A DNA stretch of 64,000 bases from Bacteroidota bacterium. Lineage in GTDB: Bacteria; Bacteroidota; Bacteroidia; UKL13-3. Position numbers and translations under genes: made by a program. Below the pieces are notes generated by a model, which saw only the letters and a program-made list of their open reading frames with translations, made no database searches and had not been told where the DNA came from. Shown here piece after piece: positions 9,234-51,944 of the stretch (position 1 is its first letter; every line of letters starts with the position of its first letter). The stretch spans positions 33,744 through 97,743 of the forward strand of contig JANYDU010000027.1 in assembly GCA_025359805.1 (NCBI GenBank), written 5' to 3'.

Positions 9234-11150
9234 TTAATTTCGTCTAAAATTACTCGGTGCACTTTGCATAGCAGGAGGACTTTGCCTCGATGGTGCTTGC
9301 ATTTGTGGAGCACTTTGCTGCATTGGAACCTGATAGTTTGGTCTCATAGGAGCAGCTTGTTGATAGCTTGGTTGCGAATATGATGGTTGACGTGGTTGAG
9401 ATTGTTGCCAAGTATTATTATGGTTTTCCTGCGCATTATGATATTGCTGAGGATAATCATAACTCGGTTGCGCATTATAATTTTGGTTATAATTTGAAGG
9501 AGAGCTCTGATTTAAATTTTGTGAATTGGTGTGCGGATTGCCATTTTGAATAGGATTTGCTGTTTCTTGAGAGTTATTATAATGACGATAATCAACAGAG
9601 GAATTTTGGTCTATGCTTTGTGAATTTATTTTTAGATTCACCTGTTGTTGAGAATTATCAAATTGTTGAGGTTGAATAGCATGATGTTGTTCTTGCGATT
9701 GTGGATTATTGTATACAGGTTGAACAGCATTTGTTGGTTGGCTAATATTTTTAAAATCTTTAGATGTAGAATTATTTTCCAAAGCAGGTTGAATAGTATT
9801 TGACATGGCGGGTTGAGTTTCTTGTACAGTTTTAATACCAGGACTATTTGCAATACTGGCATTCATCGCTGGGTATTTATCTTGATTTGAATTTAAAAAC
9901 TCTTTATTATTTAATGTAGCTTGAGGGTTTGCCACATTATAACTTTCTCTATTCATTTCCATTTGTCCGTATTCTTTAAATAAAGCAGGTCTATTTGCAT
10001 TATTTTTATCCCAATCTTTAGTAATAATTGTTGAATTATGAATACGCCAATCATATACATTTTTGCACACAGGATTATATCCATATGCTCCATTGTGCAT
10101 GTTGTAATATTGATAACAATGATTTGAAAATGCTGAATAGTGATAATGATTTGAAGAATGAAACCAATACCAATTTAAAAAACGTCCTGAAGGCATTCCA
10201 TAATAAACCATTCGATTGTTGTAGCCATAATAATAGCCAAAGTCGTACCAATAAGGATATGGGCGCCAGTATGAATACGTGTACCATGATGGATAACCAA
10301 ACCACCAGTTATATGGATACGAATTATAATTTGTTGGAGCATTAGTTAAAGGAGTAGAATAACTTTGAGTAGCATAACCATTTTCTTTAGCGTAATCTTT
10401 TGTAGCTTGTTGATATTGTTGTTTGGCTAAAGTGTCTTTATCTAAAGTTTGTTGCCAATCTGCTGCATCTTGTTTACTTTTTTGTGATAATACAAGATTT
10501 AATGAATCGGCATTATGAATGACCAATGCAGGATTTTTTTTGTAAACATCACCCACTACCACCGTCATGTGCATATTGGTGGCAAGAACATCCAAAATAT
10601 CAGGCTGATTTAAAAGTGTTTTAAAAGCAGTAATAGTACTTGTTGGATAACCCAACATCAGTTGTTCAAATTCGGAATTATAGGTTTTGTTGCTTTGATT
10701 TATCTTCACAAAAAGGTCGTAATTTTTTGTCCCTTCATCTATTGCAGTTTGACGAATTTCTGAAGGATAAGATGCTAAAACCGTATTAATATCTGCACCA
10801 CTTTTTCTATTGTATTCTGTAATTTTGGTAATCAAACCAGGATAGCGAGTTAAGTTCCAAATTTTTTCTTGTTCCTCTTTTGAATAGGGAGATAAAAGTG
10901 AAGTAAAATCTGCGTTGGTTTTTTTTTGCATCGCACTTAATCGAGCAATAATTTCAGGATTCATGCACGCAATAAAAATAGTTGTACGTACCTCTTTAGG
11001 ATACATAGCCACTGCATCTATTGCTGTTTGGTCGTCTTGATTTACGCGTTGCAATAATGATTGATCATTGGTATTTGTTTGTGCTTGAATTTTTACAGTT
11101 ACTAAAATGATTAAGCAAGCTATAATAGCTGATTTTAATAGCGTTTTCAT
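9234..11150 (-). CDS. Secreted DUF3300-like protein with an aromatic-rich core and a Q/N/P/S-rich low-complexity tail
   Basis: Signal peptide (..VKIQAQ) and helical repeats with YP-x-E/S motifs (AMYPKEVR, ASYPSEIR, LGYPTSTI). These are followed by a Y/W/N-rich block and then a Gln/Pro-rich tail. Confidence 0.75.
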   Translation of the reverse strand: MKTLLKSAIIACLIILVTVKIQAQTNTNDQSLLQRVNQDDQTAIDAVAMYPKEVRTTIFIACMNPEIIARLSAMQKKTNADFTSLLSPYSKEEQEKIWNLTRYPGLITKITEYNRKSGADINTVLASYPSEIRQTAIDEGTKNYDLFVKINQSNKTYNSEFEQLMLGYPTSTITAFKTLLNQPDILDVLATNMHMTVVVGDVYKKNPALVIHNADSLNLVLSQKSKQDAADWQQTLDKDTLAKQQYQQATKDYAKENGYATQSYSTPLTNAPTNYNSYPYNWWFGYPSWYTYSYWRPYPYWYDFGYYYGYNNRMVYYGMPSGRFLNWYWFHSSNHYHYSAFSNHCYQYYNMHNGAYGYNPVCKNVYDWRIHNSTIITKDWDKNNANRPALFKEYGQMEMNRESYNVANPQATLNNKEFLNSNQDKYPAMNASIANSPGIKTVQETQPAMSNTIQPALENNSTSKDFKNISQPTNAVQPVYNNPQSQEQHHAIQPQQFDNSQQQVNLKINSQSIDQNSSVDYRHYNNSQETANPIQNGNPHTNSQNLNQSSPSNYNQNYNAQPSYDYPQQYHNAQENHNNTWQQSQPRQPSYSQPSYQQAAPMRPNYQVPMQQSAPQMQAPSRQSPPAMQSAPSNFRRN

Positions 11151-39561: not shown

Positions 39562-40092
39562 ATGTTTTCATCATCCTTACAAGGTTATTTAGAAATTATT
39601 TTACGGGCATCAGCAGTATATTTTTTTATGCTGTTTGCTATTCGCATTTTTGGCAAAAAGGAATTATCTCAATTATCCACTTCCGATTTGGTTTTAATTT
39701 TACTCATTAGTAATGCGGTGCAAAATGCTATGGTTGGTCCTGATAATTCGCTTGGTGGTGGATTGATTGCCGCATTGGTTTTATTTTGTATTAACTATGG
39801 ATTTAAGTTGGTAATGTTTAAAAATAAAAAAGCAACTGAACTGATTGAAGGCAATACTGCCATATTGATTTATAAAGGTGTAGTGAATGAAGAAATAATC
39901 AAAAAAGAAAAAATTACACCCGATGAATTAGAAGCTGTGGTGCGCGAACATGGTGTATTAAGTTCGGCAGATGTTGAGATTGCAGTAATGGAAAGGGATG
40001 GAAATATTAGCGTGGTATCTCAAGAATTAAGCGGTCAAACCTTTCACATGCGAGGAAGAAAACTGCATCCCAAACATCAAAAAGCAAATTGA
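39562..40092 (+). CDS. DUF421 (YetF-like) membrane protein
   Basis: Three N-terminal hydrophobic segments, the LSTSDLVLILLISNAVQNA motif and a soluble C-terminal domain. Confidence 0.8.
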   Translation: MFSSSLQGYLEIILRASAVYFFMLFAIRIFGKKELSQLSTSDLVLILLISNAVQNAMVGPDNSLGGGLIAALVLFCINYGFKLVMFKNKKATELIEGNTAILIYKGVVNEEIIKKEKITPDELEAVVREHGVLSSADVEIAVMERDGNISVVSQELSGQTFHMRGRKLHPKHQKAN

Positions 40093-40118
40093 TTTAAATA
40101 CTCATTTGCGATAAAATT

Positions 40119-41492
40119 TTACATTCTAAAAAGTATCGCCATAATAATTCTGGTTTCTGCCCTCACTAAATCAGGTTTCCAATTTGGGTCTAAAAGTACA
40201 TTTGTATATCCTGTTTGAGATGTTACTCCACCAGCTCCTGCAAAGTATGGAACGCTTGATTCTCTGTGAACCAATTCAACCCTAAATGTAATACTTTGAT
40301 TAGGCATCCAATCAAAATTGGTTGAGCAATCCCAACCTTTAAATTGATCACCAGGATTTGCACTAAAAGGAAAAGCGCCTTCTGGTTGAGTAGGATTACT
40401 ATGATTAGGTAATGGGCTTGCTTGCCCTGTTGGATACAATACTAAATACCTTCCAGGATTGGTCATCACACCACCTCCAATTGTCCATGCTAATTTATTT
40501 TTCGCAAACCACACTCTGTTATAAAACATAGCACTGGCAAAATATTGTGCTGGTCCTTGTGAAGCATTTCCATCACTAAAACCATTTACGCCTCCACCTT
40601 TTTCAAAACCAAAATCGCCCGTTAATGAAAATGCCATTTTACTAATTCCTTTCGATTCGGGTTTGTTTAAATAACGTAGCAATACGCTATTGTCTGAATG
40701 AAATCGAACTCTATCGGGCAAACTATCATTATCAGTTCCATAATAATCATTGGTGAGAATTTTAAAATTACTATTTGGCATCCATGTAATATTAGCGCCA
40801 AACCCAGGCATACTATTAAACTTGCCATAACTTTGCCATCCATTAATAATCCACGGTTCAATTTTTAAATGTTTAGTTGGAAAAATTTGAATTCTTATTC
40901 CATTAAAAAACCAAGGTGTATTATCAGATGTAAAGGAAGCTTGATACTCCCAATTCTCTGGTTGGTAATAAGAATTTAAACCGATGTACGACATAAACAT
41001 ACCTGCATCAATATTAATTCCATACCATTTATTAAAATGATAACCGGCATACGCTTCACTTAAATAACGATACACGTTTGCCAATTCATATTGCCCACGA
41101 TAGGGACTTAAATCGTTGCGAGGAACAACAATAGATCGGGTTCCAAACTGTGTCATCACTCTTGCTCTTGCACCATTATAATTAAAATCTCCACCAAAAT
41201 GCAAAGCAGAAAGTTGTACCTCATTGTTACGTGCTAAAGCCGTTGAACCAACCACCGTATTATCATTTGGATTATTACCCGAGTAGGTATAATTTACATC
41301 CAATAAAATACTGGGAGTAAAGTAGGGCATATTTTTAAATACTGACGAATCTCTACGGTCTGAACCATTTTGCCAAGTTACATCAATGCCTTCAAAAGGT
41401 TCGCCTTTTTGTTGTGCAGATGCCACACTCATCATCAATAATTGACAACTAATAATTGATAATACGAGTATTGATTTTGTAAATATTTTCAT
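40119..41492 (-). CDS. Outer-membrane beta-barrel porin of the kind that accompanies kdp loci in Bacteroidota
   Basis: Signal peptide (..SVASAQQ) and a 457-aa sequence rich in alternating aromatic/polar residues typical of barrels. The family call is from memory only. Confidence 0.65.
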   Translation of the reverse strand: MKIFTKSILVLSIISCQLLMMSVASAQQKGEPFEGIDVTWQNGSDRRDSSVFKNMPYFTPSILLDVNYTYSGNNPNDNTVVGSTALARNNEVQLSALHFGGDFNYNGARARVMTQFGTRSIVVPRNDLSPYRGQYELANVYRYLSEAYAGYHFNKWYGINIDAGMFMSYIGLNSYYQPENWEYQASFTSDNTPWFFNGIRIQIFPTKHLKIEPWIINGWQSYGKFNSMPGFGANITWMPNSNFKILTNDYYGTDNDSLPDRVRFHSDNSVLLRYLNKPESKGISKMAFSLTGDFGFEKGGGVNGFSDGNASQGPAQYFASAMFYNRVWFAKNKLAWTIGGGVMTNPGRYLVLYPTGQASPLPNHSNPTQPEGAFPFSANPGDQFKGWDCSTNFDWMPNQSITFRVELVHRESSVPYFAGAGGVTSQTGYTNVLLDPNWKPDLVRAETRIIMAILFRM

Positions 41493-41621
41493 GATGTTTT
41501 AAGATAATTACACGCTAACATTTTTTATTACGCCTAACAATAAATTATTTTTTTTATTGATGAATAATATTTTGCAAATATGGGTATTCATTTATTAATA
41601 AAATATAAAGAGAGTATTGAT

Positions 41622-41640
41622 GGTATAAAGATTTTATAAA
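41622..41640 (-). promoter_or_regulatory. Candidate KdpE box upstream of the porin gene: TTTATA-AAATC-TTTATA-CC
   Basis: Read on the minus strand this is a 6-5-6 direct repeat. It lies 39 nt upstream of CATATTTG, a near -7 box, and 130 nt upstream of the porin ATG. Confidence 0.6.
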
Positions 41641-41669
41641 AAAGAACTGTAAATTTAAATAATACTTAA

Positions 41670-42347
41670 TTAAGAGAAACGATAGCCAACGCCACTTTCG
41701 GTAATGATATGAGTAGGTTGATTGGGATTGTCTTCAATTTTTTTACGAAGTTGAGCTACAAATACTCTTAAATATTGTGTTTCGGATTGATAACTTACTC
41801 CCCAAATTTCTTTTAAAATAAATTGATGAGTTAGCGCTCTACCTTCATTTTTTACAAACAAGCACATCAAATTATATTCGGTTGAAGTGAGTTTAACCAT
41901 TTCATTATTTCGCTTAACGGATCTTGCTGTAAAATCAACTTGAATATTGCCACAAGTAATGATACTGCTTTGTTCATTGTTGTCATTTCTTCTTATAGAT
42001 GAGCGGATGCGAGCGAGCAATTCTGCTGTGCGAAACGGTTTTGTTAAATAATCGGTGGCGCCATTATCTAATGCCAATACAATATCAGTTTCACTGTTTA
42101 TAACAGATAGTATGATGATAGCTTTGTGATACCAAGTGCGCAGCTCTTTTAAAATTTCATGTCCACTTTTATCAGGCAAACCAATATCTAATAAGATTAA
42201 TTCGGGTGGATGATTTGCAGCCATTATCACACCTTCCTTTCCGGTTGATGCTTGCCAAACTTTATAGTCGTTACTTTCTAAAGTTATTTCAAGTAGCTTA
42301 CGAATTTGTGGTTCGTCATCTATAACTAATATTTCTGCTTTAATCAT
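41670..42347 (-). CDS. kdpE: OmpR-family response regulator, KdpE-like
   Basis: Receiver domain (VIDDEP..LLDIGLPD..TKPF). The winged-helix C-terminus YLRVFVAQLRKKIEDNPNQPTHIITESGVGYRF closely parallels E. coli KdpE (YLRIYMGHLRQKLEQDPARPRHFITETGIGYRF, from memory). Confidence 0.88.
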   Translation of the reverse strand: MIKAEILVIDDEPQIRKLLEITLESNDYKVWQASTGKEGVIMAANHPPELILLDIGLPDKSGHEILKELRTWYHKAIIILSVINSETDIVLALDNGATDYLTKPFRTAELLARIRSSIRRNDNNEQSSIITCGNIQVDFTARSVKRNNEMVKLTSTEYNLMCLFVKNEGRALTHQFILKEIWGVSYQSETQYLRVFVAQLRKKIEDNPNQPTHIITESGVGYRFS

Positions 42348-43422
42348 TTTTTAGGTTGTTTAAAAATGATGTTTCAGAAGGAATTGTAATAGTAAATTTC
42401 GCACCGCCTTCGTTATTGTTTTCCAGTTTTATATTTCCATGATGAGCTTCCACAAAACCTTTTACAATGGATAGTCCCAAGCCCGTTCCACCAGTTTTGG
42501 AATGAGGTAAACGATAAAATTTATCAAATGCAAATTGAATTTCGGAAAGCGGAAAACCCTGTCCATTATCAGAAATAATGATTACGCAATGATTGGATTG
42601 AAATGAAGTTTGAATAGTAATAATTGAATCTTCGAGAGTATATTGAATGGCATTATGAATGATATTATGCAATACTTGTTCCATCAAACCAGCATCCAAA
42701 TTAAATAGAGGAAGACTTTCATTTGCATCAAAAATAATTTTATGATGAGTGTTTTCTGAAGTAAGTTTTTGAATAACAGAAAAGATGAGCTCATTTATAT
42801 CGCACCAATCTAAATGCAATTTTAACATGCTAGTTTCAAGCCTACTCATGTTTAAAAGATTTTCAACTTGTCTGTTCAATCTTATACTTGCCTTGTCAAT
42901 TTCGATTAGTAATTCGGTTTGATTATTTGCCGAAAGTTTTTCTTTATTTTCTTTCAATGTATCTACAGCTCCAATGATTGTTGAAATAGGTGTTCTCAAC
43001 TCGTGCGAAAGAGAATTGAGCAACGTATTATAAAGTTTGATTGTGCTTTCCTTTTCTTCTTTATCTCTCGCTTTTTTTTCGGCTTCACGAATTTTAAAAG
43101 TAAGTACAACATTTACCAATGCAATAATAAAATACATAAAAAACATGAGTAAATCTTCGGTATTATCAATTTGAAAAGTATAAATAGGAGGGATGAAAAA
43201 AAAATTCCAAATTAATGCGCTTAGTACTGCCACAAATAATACAGGCAACATGTCAAATAACATGGCCACTAGTGAAACTGCTACCAAAAGTAGAAGTGCT
43301 ATAATTTTATACCCGATTAAATGAACCGAGAAGAAACAAGCAATTGCAACGGCAATAATCAAAATTATGCTTGTAATAAATTGAGTGATTAAACTATATT
43401 TTCTTGTATTAAAAAGAACCAA
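42340..43422 (-). CDS. Sensor histidine kinase corresponding to the C-terminal half of KdpD (DUF4118 membrane domain, HisKA, HATPase). The N-terminal Kdp sensor/Usp domains are absent.
   Basis: Four hydrophobic helices, an H-box SHELRTPISTIIG and a G-box TGGTGLGLSIV. Overlaps the RR gene by 8 nt. The start is putative (TTG). Confidence 0.85.
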   Translation of the reverse strand: MVLFNTRKYSLITQFITSIILIIAVAIACFFSVHLIGYKIIALLLLVAVSLVAMLFDMLPVLFVAVLSALIWNFFFIPPIYTFQIDNTEDLLMFFMYFIIALVNVVLTFKIREAEKKARDKEEKESTIKLYNTLLNSLSHELRTPISTIIGAVDTLKENKEKLSANNQTELLIEIDKASIRLNRQVENLLNMSRLETSMLKLHLDWCDINELIFSVIQKLTSENTHHKIIFDANESLPLFNLDAGLMEQVLHNIIHNAIQYTLEDSIITIQTSFQSNHCVIIISDNGQGFPLSEIQFAFDKFYRLPHSKTGGTGLGLSIVKGFVEAHHGNIKLENNNEGGAKFTITIPSETSFLNNLKND

Positions 43423-43445
43423 TTTTACTTATTAATTTATGATAA

Positions 43446-43453
43446 CAAATGTA
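43446..43453 (-). promoter_or_regulatory. -7 promoter box TACATTTG (Bacteroidota TAnnTTTG consensus) for the kinase-regulator operon
   Basis: Exact consensus match 24 nt upstream of the TTG start. Confidence 0.55.
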
Positions 43454-43461
43454 TGTTTTAA

Positions 43462-43480
43462 GGTATAAAAATTTTATAAA
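43462..43480 (-). promoter_or_regulatory. Candidate KdpE box upstream of the kinase/regulator operon: TTTATA-AAATT-TTTATA-CC
   Basis: Matches the box at 41622-41640 at 18 of 19 positions. It ends 8 nt upstream of the TACATTTG -7 box. Confidence 0.6.
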
Positions 43481-43550
43481 TAATTAGTTTCATAAAACTT
43501 AATATTGAGCTCTATTTAAAATAATTATTTTCGCCAAAAATTAAACAACA

Positions 43551-44426
43551 TTGAAAAAGAAAATAACCTTTATCATTAATCCCATTTCGGGCGGAATAAG
43601 AAAAGAAACCTTCCCATCTCTCATTGGTAAAAATATTGATAGCAATAAGTTTGATGTGGAAATAAGTTTTACCCGTTCGGCAGCACATAATTTAGAGTTG
43701 GCACAACAAGCTGTTGAGCAAAGAAAAGATATTATTGTTGCCGTAGGTGGTGATGGAACTATTAATAACGTTGCAAAATATGTTACAGGAAGTGAGTCTG
43801 TATTTGGTATGATACCAATGGGATCCGGAAATGGATTGGCAAGGCATTTAAATATTCCACTCAATAATCAAAAAGCACTTCAACTTATTAATCGTCAAAA
43901 AAGTATAAAAATTGATACAGGAAAAGCCAATGACGACTTTTTTATAAATGTAGCGGGTGCGGGTTTTGATGCGCATGTAAGTTGGATGTTTGCCAATGCA
44001 CCGAGTCGTGGTTTTTGGTCGTATGCAAAAATCACTTTAAATGAATTTGCTCAATATAAGTCTCGAGAATATGAATTAATTATTGATGGCAAAAGTATCA
44101 CTGAAAAAGCGTTTTTAATTTGTGTAGCCAATGGCTCTCAATATGGAAACAATGCATTTATAGCCCCAACAGCTGATTTAAAAGATGGTATTTTTGAAGT
44201 GAGTTTACTAAAGCCTTTTAAAAAAAGAAACATGCCTTTTATTGGCTTAGAAATGTTTACCAAAAAGTTTAATAATTCAAAATATGTTACAACATTCAGA
44301 GGAAAACACATTATTATAAAAAGACCCGATGCCGAGGTCGTAAATATTGATGGAGAACCTGTGATGATGGAAAAACTATTAGATATAAAAATAGTACCTG
44401 CTTCTCTTCAAGTTCTCGTTCCATAA
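43551..44426 (+). CDS. Diacylglycerol-kinase-family lipid kinase (YegS-like)
   Basis: FIINPISGG and the VAVGGDGTINNV motif. TTG start. Confidence 0.88.
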   Translation: MKKKITFIINPISGGIRKETFPSLIGKNIDSNKFDVEISFTRSAAHNLELAQQAVEQRKDIIVAVGGDGTINNVAKYVTGSESVFGMIPMGSGNGLARHLNIPLNNQKALQLINRQKSIKIDTGKANDDFFINVAGAGFDAHVSWMFANAPSRGFWSYAKITLNEFAQYKSREYELIIDGKSITEKAFLICVANGSQYGNNAFIAPTADLKDGIFEVSLLKPFKKRNMPFIGLEMFTKKFNNSKYVTTFRGKHIIIKRPDAEVVNIDGEPVMMEKLLDIKIVPASLQVLVP

Positions 44427-44942: not shown

Positions 44943-44950
44943 TACATTTG
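44943..44950 (+). promoter_or_regulatory. -7 promoter box TACATTTG for dabAB, with a TTTG -33-like element at 44923-44926
   Basis: Exact TAnnTTTG match 28 nt upstream of the dabA ATG (44978). Confidence 0.6.
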
Positions 44951-51266: not shown

Positions 51267-51944
51267 ATGAAAATATTAGTTATTGAAGACGAACCTAAAG
51301 TAGCTTCTTTTATTAAACAAGGATTAGAAGAACAATCCAATGATGTAACAGTTGCATTTGATGGGTTTTTTGGAAAAAAATTAGCCACTGAAAATCATTA
51401 TGATGTGATTATTATGGATTTGATGATTCCATATATTAATGGTTTAGAGCTATGCAAAACACTTAGAGCCGAAGGAATAAAAACTCCAGTATTAATGCTT
51501 ACGGCACTTGGAACAACAGATGATAAAGTAACAGGGCTTGATGCAGGGGCTGATGATTATTTAGTAAAACCTTTTGAGTTTAAAGAATTGCTGGCTCGTT
51601 TGCGTGCACTCACAAAAAGATATACCGATAATGTACATGAAATAAAAGTACTTGGCATTGCAGATTTGGAAATGAATTTAGATGAAAAAAGTGTACGCAG
51701 ATCGGGGAAACAAATTGAACTTACCGCAAAAGAATTTGGCTTGCTTGAATATTTTTTGAAGAACAAAAATCGTGTTGTTTCCAGAACTGAAATTGCTGAA
51801 AAAGTTTGGGATATACATTTTGATACTGGTACTAACGTTATTGACGTGTATATTAATTTTCTTCGCAAAAAAATTGATAAAGAGTTTACACCAAAACTTA
51901 TTCATACTATGGTGGGCATGGGTTATGTAATGAAAGTAGAGTAG
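51267..51944 (+). CDS. OmpR/PhoB-family response regulator with no adjacent histidine kinase
   Basis: Receiver domain (VIEDEP..IMDLMIP..VKPF) and winged helix (LTAKEFGLLEYFL..IHTMVGMGYV). The next gene is convergent (coaE). Confidence 0.9.
   Translation: MKILVIEDEPKVASFIKQGLEEQSNDVTVAFDGFFGKKLATENHYDVIIMDLMIPYINGLELCKTLRAEGIKTPVLMLTALGTTDDKVTGLDAGADDYLVKPFEFKELLARLRALTKRYTDNVHEIKVLGIADLEMNLDEKSVRRSGKQIELTAKEFGLLEYFLKNKNRVVSRTEIAEKVWDIHFDTGTNVIDVYINFLRKKIDKEFTPKLIHTMVGMGYVMKVE

Follow-up and report, generated by a model that had tools for sequence, protein, structure and literature searches.

Two near-identical KdpE-type direct repeats ahead of a BBP2 porin gene and a kinase/regulator operon in a Bacteroidota genome are probable operators of the adjacent two-component system

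In E. coli the OmpR-family activator PhoB controls the Pho regulon through tandem 11-bp direct repeats, the pho boxes, which replace the upstream promoter element, normally lie over the -35 region with a short and constant spacing to the downstream element and often occur two or more in phase, and the phoBR operon is positively autoregulated. Control of outer-membrane porins is exerted by OmpR, which acts at ompF and ompC via several adjacent direct-repeat sites of graded affinity. It has been shown that the operator of E. coli kdpFABC is made of TTTATA (S1), five AT-rich bp and TTTACA (S2) and gives a KdpE footprint at -72 to -50, and that residues R193, R200 and T215 of KdpE are needed for DNA binding, R193 being specific to the KdpE family (PMC3264566; PDB 4KNY, 4KFC). 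In Bacteroidota the sigma-A promoter has a -7 box, TAnnTTTG, at -12 to -5 from the transcription start (PMC9723704). The literature that we searched holds no description of a KdpE-type regulon with kup or a PF07642 porin in Bacteroidota, and in the available part of the Caulobacter KdpE study kup is not reported as a KdpE target. Here we describe two boxes in a 64-kb stretch of Bacteroidota DNA, the whole of which was analysed and is called the window; its sequence was met in rock and sediment metagenome DNA runs only.

The genes for a sensor kinase, a response regulator and a porin follow one another in this window (Table 1). The kinase has the DUF4118 four-helix membrane domain (PF13493, residues 19-120) directly ahead of its HisKA (133-197) and HATPase_c (245-350) core, as KdpD has, and its best NCBIfam match is to residues 648-884 of the 895 of KdpD at 172 bits, which is below the cut-off of 1123; only the C-terminal part of KdpD has a counterpart in it. 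It is minimal compared to E. coli KdpD of about 895 aa, and by Pfam it is without the KdpD N-terminal and Usp domains of a full KdpD; since these are missing, the signal could differ from potassium limitation. The kinase and regulator genes overlap by 8 nt, which suggests that they form one operon. The best PDB match of the regulator is E. coli KdpE (4KNY, E = 4e-55) and its best NCBIfam match, top of 96 families, is KdpE (NF007820) at 216.5 bits, but because this misses the equivalog cut-off of 325 we call it KdpE-like and not KdpE. Its motifs YLR, QLR and ITES align with R193, R200 and T215 of E. coli KdpE and all three residues are kept. The porin scores 144.9 bits against PF07642, the gathering score being 26.2, and no solved structure was detectable for it by sequence. 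No potassium transporter gene was found in the 64-kb window, and therefore the link between this porin and potassium rests on synteny in other genomes.

Table 1. Features of the locus, and one further open reading frame, with their positions in the window
Feature	Position	Strand	Remarks
Outer-membrane beta-barrel porin, BBP2 (PF07642), 457 aa, signal peptide	40119..41492	-	Pfam E = 4.8e-42
Sub-consensus -7 box CATATTTG	41575..41582	-	porin promoter
Proximal weaker operator (predicted) CTTTATA-TTTT-ATTAATA	41593..41610	-	about -40 to -23; fits conserved consensus
Distal operator (predicted) tTTTATA-AAAT-CTTTATA	41624..41641	-	about -71 to -54 from predicted start
KdpE-like OmpR-family response regulator, 225 aa	41670..42347	-	Response_reg + Trans_reg_C (Pfam)
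Sensor histidine kinase, 360 aa	42340..43422	-	DUF4118 membrane domain + HisKA + HATPase_c (Pfam)
Bacteroidota sigma-A -7 box TACATTTG, kinase/regulator operon	43446..43453	-	exact consensus
Kinase-operon operator (predicted) aTTTATA-AAAT-TTTTATA	43464..43481	-	about -40 to -23 from predicted start
638-aa ORF	9234-11150		no Pfam match

When the minus strand is read from 41640 to 41622 it gives TTTATAAAATCTTTATACC and from 43480 to 43462 it gives TTTATAAAATTTTTATACC, and the two are identical at 18 of 19 positions, position 11 being C in the former and T in the latter, with spacers AAATC on the porin side and AAATT on the kinase side. Each copy of TTTATA-N5-TTTATA (41640..41624 and 43480..43464, minus strand) consists of two direct 6-bp TTTATA half-sites with a 5-bp AT-rich spacer and a centre-to-centre distance of 11 bp. 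An earlier note on this DNA had described the pair as near-identical 6-5-6 direct repeats of the KdpE type and had given the E. coli operator as TTTATA-N5-TTTACA, and both points are borne out, the latter by PMC3264566, as are the distances that it gave, 39 nt from 41622 to CATATTTG and 8 nt from 43462 to TACATTTG. The 6-bp half-site, the 5-bp AT-rich spacer, the 11-bp period and the direct-repeat orientation are all common to the E. coli KdpE operator, and the position of the distal porin site matches that of the E. coli footprint. The differences are that the targets here are an outer-membrane porin gene and the regulator's own operon and not kdpFABC, that there is an extra proximal site over the -33 region of a Bacteroidota sigma-A promoter (-7 TAnnTTTG), and that the half-site preferred here extends to 7 bp, CTTTATA. 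The likeness to the pho boxes is one of working mode and not of membership, as their half-site is CTGTCAT and not CTTTATA and their regulator is of another subfamily, with another signal and another sigma-factor architecture.

The proximal site of the porin promoter, which the earlier note overlooked, is degenerate and its last half-site stops 10 nt before the -7 octamer. Among the transporter and porin promoters compared, 88 of 109 contain the consensus of this site, cTTTAtA-tttT-NcNNATA, with a gap of 10 nt to the -7 box, and the layout with two sites is the usual one at kup, ktr, kdp and porin promoters. The distance between the distal box and the TTTG of the -7 element is 63 or 64 nt in 88 of 109 transporter promoters. 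CATATTTG agrees with TAnnTTTG at 7 of 8 pattern positions and 5 of 6 specified bases, and a T at the first octamer position, and with it the full consensus, is found in just 19 of 88 transporter and porin promoters. Transcription of the porin gene probably starts near 41570, which would give a leader of 78 nt. A known RNA such as a riboswitch in this leader was considered and dropped, because there was no Rfam match at E <= 1 in 39900-43700, the leader included. No terminator was found between the regulator and porin genes, the sole terminator-like hairpin being inside the porin gene, and thus transcription of the kinase/regulator operon may run on into the porin gene. In the promoter of that operon, for which we predict a start near 43441, the half-site TTTTATA is followed by 10 nt and then by TACATTTG; this arrangement of box, 10 nt and TAnnTTTG was seen in 26 of the 49 kinase promoters collected, and the full TAnnTTTG in 39 of 44. 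A sub-consensus -7 box at transporter and porin promoters, compared to a consensus one at kinase promoters, fits activator dependence of the former. The different geometry of the two boxes had been taken earlier as a sign that regulation differs in sign or class; the figures behind this claim stand but the inference is not supported, because both promoters share a site at about -40 to -23. What really differs between the two promoters is the strength of the sites, the extra distal site of the porin promoter and the quality of the -7 box.

When 80 related loci of Flavobacteriales, Chitinophagales, Saprospiraceae, Bacteroidales and Cytophagales (1.25 Mb in all) were searched, the pattern was found 90 times and 82 of these copies were at one of two homologous positions, either immediately behind the regulator gene (67) or immediately ahead of the kinase gene (15). 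A perfect box just after the regulator gene is present in 64 of the 80 loci, its start often 3-10 nt from the regulator stop codon, and AAAT(C) is the commonest spacer. Ahead of the kinase gene a relaxed box, TTTAYA-N5-TTTAYA, was found in 31 of the 80 loci. The gene after the box is kup in 65 of the 80 loci and ktrB/ktrA in four, and in many of them a BBP2 porin gene lies behind the transporter gene, with porin orthologues that are 65-83% identical and follow kup in many relatives. Loci of the type kinase-regulator-kup-porin or kinase-regulator-ktrBA-porin in Flavobacterium, Epilithonimonas, Hanamia, Arenibacter and Mesonia (L012, L021, L040, L064, L068, L075, L078) have an orthologous kinase, regulator and porin, 58-83% identical, and the same box, proximal site and -7 spacing as here, but in them a potassium transporter gene stands between promoter and porin. 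Among cultured relatives, Flavobacterium palustre and F. frigoris have the order regulator-box-kup, Epilithonimonas pallida has the kinase box as well as kup-porin, and Arenibacter latericius has ktrBA-porin. In the window and in three other loci (L055, L168, L185) the transporter gene is missing at that position, the porin gene is directly behind the box and the porin is the sole local target. The expectation that in Bacteroidota a BBP2 porin gene would as a rule lie behind kdpC held in just 3 of 68 sampled kdp loci; it is with kup and ktr loci that the porin gene is associated instead. In canonical Bacteroidales kdpFABC-kdpD-kdpE loci a relaxed box lies within 500 nt upstream of kdpA in only 23 of 76, which counts against the KdpE-type reading.

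In public genomes, among the matches listed, 82 of 118 exact 18-mer sites precede potassium-uptake or permease, kinase, porin or regulator genes, the downstream gene being that of a DUF4118 kinase in 31, kdpA in 17, ktrB/trkH in 15, kup in 10, an APC permease in 3, a regulator in 3, a porin in 2 and ktrA in 1. Among these listed matches the 18-mer is thus found ahead of kdpA, kup, ktrB and the same kinase type in unrelated genomes. The other 36 of the 118 listed sites have no recognised target adjoining and many of them are in AT-rich Firmicutes genomes.

It is very probable, as far as the sequence can tell, that the two boxes are operators of the adjacent two-component system, that is, of the minimal KdpD-type kinase and the KdpE-like regulator. 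The reasons for reading them as of the KdpE type are the KdpE-like regulator itself, the conservation of the box at two positions, the targets of the 18-mer and the fixed distance to the -7 box. On this reading the locus has a variant of a known switch in an unusual setting, in which a KdpE-type operator is combined with a minimal kinase and the local target is a porin. The mechanism that we infer is that when potassium is scarce the kinase would, by homology, phosphorylate the regulator, dimers of which would bind head-to-tail on (C/T)TTTATA direct repeats with an 11-bp period. One dimer would sit on the consensus distal site of the porin promoter and a second one on its weaker proximal site, which lies over the -33 region 10 nt before the sub-consensus -7 box, and both dimers together would recruit sigma-A RNA polymerase and turn on the porin gene. 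The kinase/regulator operon, with a single strong site in the proximal position and a consensus -7 box, would have basal expression and, most likely, positive feedback in addition. In most relatives the same promoter would drive kup-porin or ktrBA-porin. Tentatively, and with rather less than even confidence in the whole, we propose that these loci form a phylum-wide potassium-starvation regulon of Bacteroidota, run by a minimal KdpD without the N-terminal sensor domain and a KdpE-like regulator, in which the operators replace the -33 element at a fixed 10 nt from the -7 box and the BBP2 porin is a dedicated channel induced by potassium limitation and possibly cation-selective.

Both the sign and the signal could be other than proposed. 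Where a strong site covers the -33 region of a consensus promoter, it could serve repression instead of activation, and the regulator bound at about -40 to -23 would then block RNA polymerase at the kinase promoter while it activates the porin promoter; the perfect -7 box should work there without an activator, and many Flavobacterium loci are without the kinase box, which would make the feedback dispensable. However, potassium-uptake promoters, which are expected to be induced, have a site at exactly this distance of 10 nt from the -7 octamer in the 88 of 109 cases given above, and therefore occupancy there is compatible with activation, and the complete activator layout, with a distal and a proximal site, is used by 18 of 49 kinase promoters. 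Binding over the -35 region is also normal for activators of the OmpR/PhoB family such as PhoB, and since the -33 position corresponds to that of the pho box of an activator it gives no reason to expect repression, so that negative autoregulation appears unlikely to us. As for the signal, it may be osmotic, ionic or envelope stress, with the porin a general diffusion channel in the style of OmpR and OmpF/OmpC. OmpR-family control of porins through tandem sites is the classic precedent for this, the likeness being in the OmpR-family regulator, the porin target and the adjacent direct-repeat sites, and the kinase is without the N-terminal, Usp and GAF parts of KdpD while the local target is a porin with no transporter in the window. 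It is nevertheless an improbable explanation, because all other recurrent targets of the box are potassium importers (kdpFABC, kup, ktrBA, trkH) and the best match of the kinase is still KdpD. Compared to the OmpR sites at ompF and ompC, the porin is of the BBP2 and not of the OmpF type, the motif differs, the signal is probably potassium and not osmolarity, and we found nothing at this locus that points to reciprocal control of two porins.

Whether the boxes belong to the adjacent regulator at all was weighed as well. Direct repeats that are AT-rich and spaced by 11 bp are common to many OmpR-family sites, and the adjacent regulator scores under the curated KdpE cut-off, so the KdpE likeness might be superficial and the boxes might be bound by another factor, for example the sole other OmpR-type regulator of the window (51267-51944) or one encoded elsewhere. 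This is very hard to reconcile with the fact that box and regulator gene stay together in 64 of 80 loci, the box often starting within 3-10 nt of the stop codon, with a KdpE-like recognition helix in the adjacent regulator that is invariant in 79 relatives, and with a half-site and spacing that are those of the E. coli KdpE operator, whereas the regulator at 51267-51944 has Asp in place of the KdpE-specific Arg193; we hold it to be a very slight possibility. Least credible of all is that the boxes are without a specific regulator, whether as AT-rich repeats that arose by chance or as promoter elements of a generic kind (-33 or UP-like). It is true that the window has 32.5% GC and its intergenic DNA 26%, that TTTA resembles the TTTG of the Bacteroidota -33 element, and that the 18-mer occurs, among the matches listed, also at unrelated places in Clostridia and Lysinibacillus. 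The earlier note had itself raised the objection that two copies might be expected by chance in AT-rich intergenic DNA, but this objection fails. There are exactly two matches to TTTATANNNNNTTTATA on both strands of the 64-kb window; in whole-window dinucleotide shuffles the chance mean was 0.12 and two copies were reached in 0 of 100, and even at intergenic composition (first-order Markov model from about 5 kb of DNA outside long ORFs) the mean was 0.039 and P(>=2) was 0.0015. The clustering of the copies in relatives (82 of 90) at homologous positions and the genes that follow 82 of the 118 listed 18-mers also go against chance, and the other promoters in the window are without the 6-5-6 pattern. 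When up to 3 mismatches were allowed just three further weak matches appeared in the window, at 9747, 11386 and 16000, and these were set aside as chance since they lie inside or adjoin the 638-aa ORF, a YceG gene and a thiolase gene.

Since the -33/-7 promoter used by sigma-A of Bacteroidota is unusual, the activation of transcription in these bacteria is still poorly mapped. The layout described here is sharply defined and widely conserved, with two dimer sites in helical phase and a gap of 10 nt between the proximal site and the -7 box, and with an identified regulator and a predictable signal the model can be tested in cultured relatives. It predicts two things that are absent from the literature that we searched, namely that kup and ktrBA, and not only kdpFABC, would be under KdpE-type control in Bacteroidota, and that a BBP2 porin would be part of the potassium-uptake response. 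When Bacteroidota genomes and MAGs are annotated, the 18-mer may serve as a practical marker of promoters that belong to the potassium regulon. If the phylum-wide regulon proposed above is real, then the entry of potassium through the outer membrane would itself be under regulation, and the system would have no other local output in this genome.

The two TTTATA-N5-TTTATA boxes that the earlier note had described upstream of the porin gene and of the kinase/regulator operon were found again, identical to each other at 18 of 19 positions, and the distances that it gave to the -7-like boxes proved correct on remeasuring. The E. coli KdpE operator was also given there correctly, and the boxes do match it: its half-sites are S1 (TTTATA) and S2 (TTTACA) with 5 AT-rich bp between them (PMC3264566). 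No third copy of TTTATA-N5-TTTATA was found on either strand of the 64 kb. In whole-window dinucleotide shuffles the mean was 0.12 copies and two or more were reached in 0 of 100 shuffles. Since the intergenic DNA is much richer in AT than the window overall (26% GC compared to 32.5% for the whole), the estimate was redone with a first-order Markov model of the approximately 5 kb outside long ORFs, which gave a mean of 0.039 copies and P(≥2) = 0.0015. Base composition as the source of the pair is ruled out by both estimates, and with it the caution that two copies might be expected by chance in AT-rich intergenic DNA.

Coordinates of the genes, boxes and predicted sites in the window
Feature	Coordinates	Strand	Description
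Histidine kinase, 360 aa	43422..42340	minus	DUF4118 membrane domain, HisKA and HATPase_c
OmpR-family regulator	42347..41670	minus	8-nt overlap with kinase gene; best matches are KdpE
BBP2/OmpL-like beta-barrel porin, 457 aa	41492..40119	minus	
Kinase-side box	43480..43462	minus	TTTATAAAATTTTTATACC
-7-like box, kinase promoter	43453..43446	minus	TACATTTG, 8 nt from kinase-side box
Porin-side box	41640..41622	minus	TTTATAAAATCTTTATACC
Porin distal site (predicted)	41641..41624	minus	tTTTATA-AAAT-CTTTATA; 13 nt to proximal site
Porin proximal site (predicted)	41610..41593	minus	CTTTATA-TTTT-ATTAATA
-7-like box, porin promoter	41582..41575	minus	CATATTTG, 39 nt from porin-side box

The top curated match of the kinase covers residues 648-884 of the 895 of KdpD, its C-terminal quarter. 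The N-terminal and Usp domains of KdpD are missing from the kinase, which scores far under the KdpD cut-off and is not a canonical KdpD. The regulator scores 216.5 bits against the NCBIfam KdpE model, under the equivalog cut-off of 325, and its closest PDB entry is E. coli KdpE 4KNY (E = 4e-55). Because the kinase is non-canonical and the regulator falls under this cut-off, the signal is inferred. DNA binding by KdpE needs R193 and R200 from the recognition helix as well as wing residue T215, and KdpE-family proteins typically have R193 whereas PhoB and OmpR have Asp there (PMC3264566). The window regulator has equivalents of all three residues (in YLR, QLR and ITES), and its recognition helix, TQYLRVF..LRKKIE, shows no variation across 79 orthologues. 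The window has just one other OmpR-type regulator (51267-51944, plus strand), with Asp at the R193 position; it ends a stretch beginning at 44948 that encodes DabA (PF10070) and a NuoL/Mrp-like DabB partner, a pair that suggests an inorganic-carbon pump, and then a SulP-family permease. No gene for Kup, KtrB/TrkH, KtrA or KdpA is present in the window, and no solved structure related to the porin was found. Rock and sediment metagenome DNA was the only material in which the window sequence occurred; two metagenomes from one study, the first of rock and the second of sediment, contain nearly all of 40100-43600 (97% of sampled words) and others contain parts of it, and the highest regulator identity among the species-representative genomes searched was 83%.

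The comparison covered 80 related loci of Flavobacteriales, Chitinophagales, Saprospiraceae, Bacteroidales, Cytophagales and Sphingobacteriales, with regulators 75-83% identical to that of the window. A perfect box lies directly 3' of the regulator stop codon in 64 of the 80, usually as CTTTATAAAATCTTTATA, and the kinase gene is directly preceded by a perfect box in 15 loci and by the relaxed TTTAYA form in 31. Altogether 82 of the 90 perfect boxes in 1.25 Mb of related loci are at one of these two positions; among the other eight, one is upstream of kdpA on the opposite strand (L004), another is upstream of a kinase gene that is displaced (L010), and three overlap the same site on the reverse strand. 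In 65 loci the box is followed by kup and in four by ktrB-ktrA, and in many of these a BBP2 porin follows the transporter gene, those after kup being 50-83% identical to the window porin. Three loci (L055, L168 and L185) share the window order of regulator gene, box and porin, one directly after the other.

Two Flavobacterium MAGs (L017, 10192-10220; L044, 10682-10710) have three tandem CTTTATAAAAT units instead of two after the regulator stop, the third being an additional half-site in phase. In L068 (~10334, minus) and L075 (~11333, minus) the interval from a small ORF to ktrB contains an opposite-orientation box, TTTATAAATGTTTTATA, in addition to the forward box 3' of the regulator gene. 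Several boxed promoters are possible in one genome: in Marinifilum (L172/L234) box-kdpA is divergent from box-kinase-regulator-kup, and Saprospiraceae locus L004 has regulator-box-kup and, about 7 kb off, the boxed kdpA. In L030 and L057, also Saprospiraceae, the kinase-promoter box is replaced by long tandem repeats of TCGTTTT/GATTTT units.

When 109 distinct transporter and porin promoters were aligned on the box, 88 of them had the TTTG of the -7 box at a distance of 63 or 64 nt downstream, with the consensus CTTTATAAAATCTTTATA, 13-14 nt, cTTTAtA-tttT-NcNNATA, 10 nt (from the end of the proximal site to the -7 octamer), nAnnTTTG. The four half-sites, at offsets 0, 11, 31/32 and 42/43, thus form two predicted dimer sites two helical turns apart. 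The window porin promoter fits this layout exactly, its proximal site being followed by 10 nt, AATGAATACC, and CATATTTG. Kinase promoters fall mainly into two classes: 26 of 49 have a box, 10 nt and TAnnTTTG, the class to which the window kinase promoter belongs (TTTTATA, then CCTTAAAACA, then TACATTTG), and 18 of 49 have the complete two-site layout. The full TAnnTTTG is present in 19 of the 88 transporter/porin promoters compared to 39 of 44 kinase promoters, a rule that the window follows with CATATTTG at the porin and the full element at the kinase. As the flavobacterial -7 box is at -12 to -5 (PMC9723704), transcription would start at about 41570 for the porin, giving a 78-nt leader, and at about 43441 for the kinase. 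From these starts the porin distal site would be at -71 to -54, and the porin proximal and kinase sites both at -40 to -23; the distal position is E. coli-like, the KdpE footprint at kdpFABC, which contains both half-sites, being -72 to -50 (PMC3264566). No terminator-like hairpin was found between the regulator and porin genes, so porin expression may be increased by read-through, and no known RNA element was found in the kinase-regulator-porin region.

Scanning public genomes, one per species, for the exact 18-mer CTTTATAAAATCTTTATA gave at least 118 sites, the target being the same-strand gene that follows within 450 nt. Among the 118 sites listed, the targets were a DUF4118 kinase (at least 31), kdpA (at least 17), ktrB/trkH (at least 15), kup (at least 10), ktrA (at least 1), a 680-aa APC-family permease (at least 3), a porin (at least 2) and a regulator (at least 3); several of the 36 other sites still adjoin a regulator gene and the remainder are mostly in AT-rich Firmicutes genomes. 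The box thus marks potassium-uptake promoters in genomes far outside the relatives of the window, which is the behaviour expected of a KdpE-type operator. The permease ORFs (~680 aa, APC superfamily, AA_permease_2) follow the 18-mer in Bacteroidota loci L091, L102 and L146 and are possible KimA-like potassium importers controlled by the same regulator. In three Acidobacteriaceae MAGs (L096, 2354; L105, 7618; L139, 7582) the 18-mer is 25-45 nt before a small ORF whose start resembles that of a secreted protein; these genomes are GC-rich, and an 18-mer this rich in AT would be expected only rarely in them.

The reading of the cis-element as a predicted KdpE-type operator, an element of known kind, is solid as a sequence-based assignment, and a mechanism built on it is plausible. 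The promoter of the kinase/regulator operon is good and basal expression of the operon is probable, and the signal, by homology, is most likely potassium limitation. At the porin promoter, which has no good -7 box, the phosphorylated regulator would then occupy the strong distal site and afterwards the weak proximal one, and from the latter it would recruit RNA polymerase. The pho box of PhoB takes the same promoter position as the proximal site. The earlier note, which missed this proximal site, had suggested that the kinase operon is under autoregulation of a different sign or class, for which, apart from repression being possible in general, we found no support. Once the proximal site is counted, the difference between the two promoters ceases to be one of kind: both have a site over the -33 region and the porin promoter has an extra upstream site. 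That the kinase promoter has its site at the same proximal position argues for positive feedback, which we consider clearly the more probable sign, although negative autoregulation keeps an appreciable share.

The Bacteroidales kdp loci examined (L200-L278) are canonical, with kdpFABC, a full-length kdpD and then kdpE, and the tblastn scores of their regulators against the window regulator are far under those of the orthologues in the 80 related loci. A relaxed box is within 500 nt upstream of kdpA in 23 of 76 of these canonical loci and a BBP2 porin is 3' of kdpC in 3 of 68; the combination of box and porin is therefore mainly a feature of the minimal-kinase kup/ktr loci. It is synteny that points to a role of the porin in potassium uptake. 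What is new compared to the literature that we found is a predicted KdpE-type operator that, with a minimal kinase, would across Bacteroidota drive the expression of kup, ktrBA and a BBP2 porin, the conserved arrangement of two sites at a fixed distance from the -7 box, and the porin as the sole local target in the window genome.
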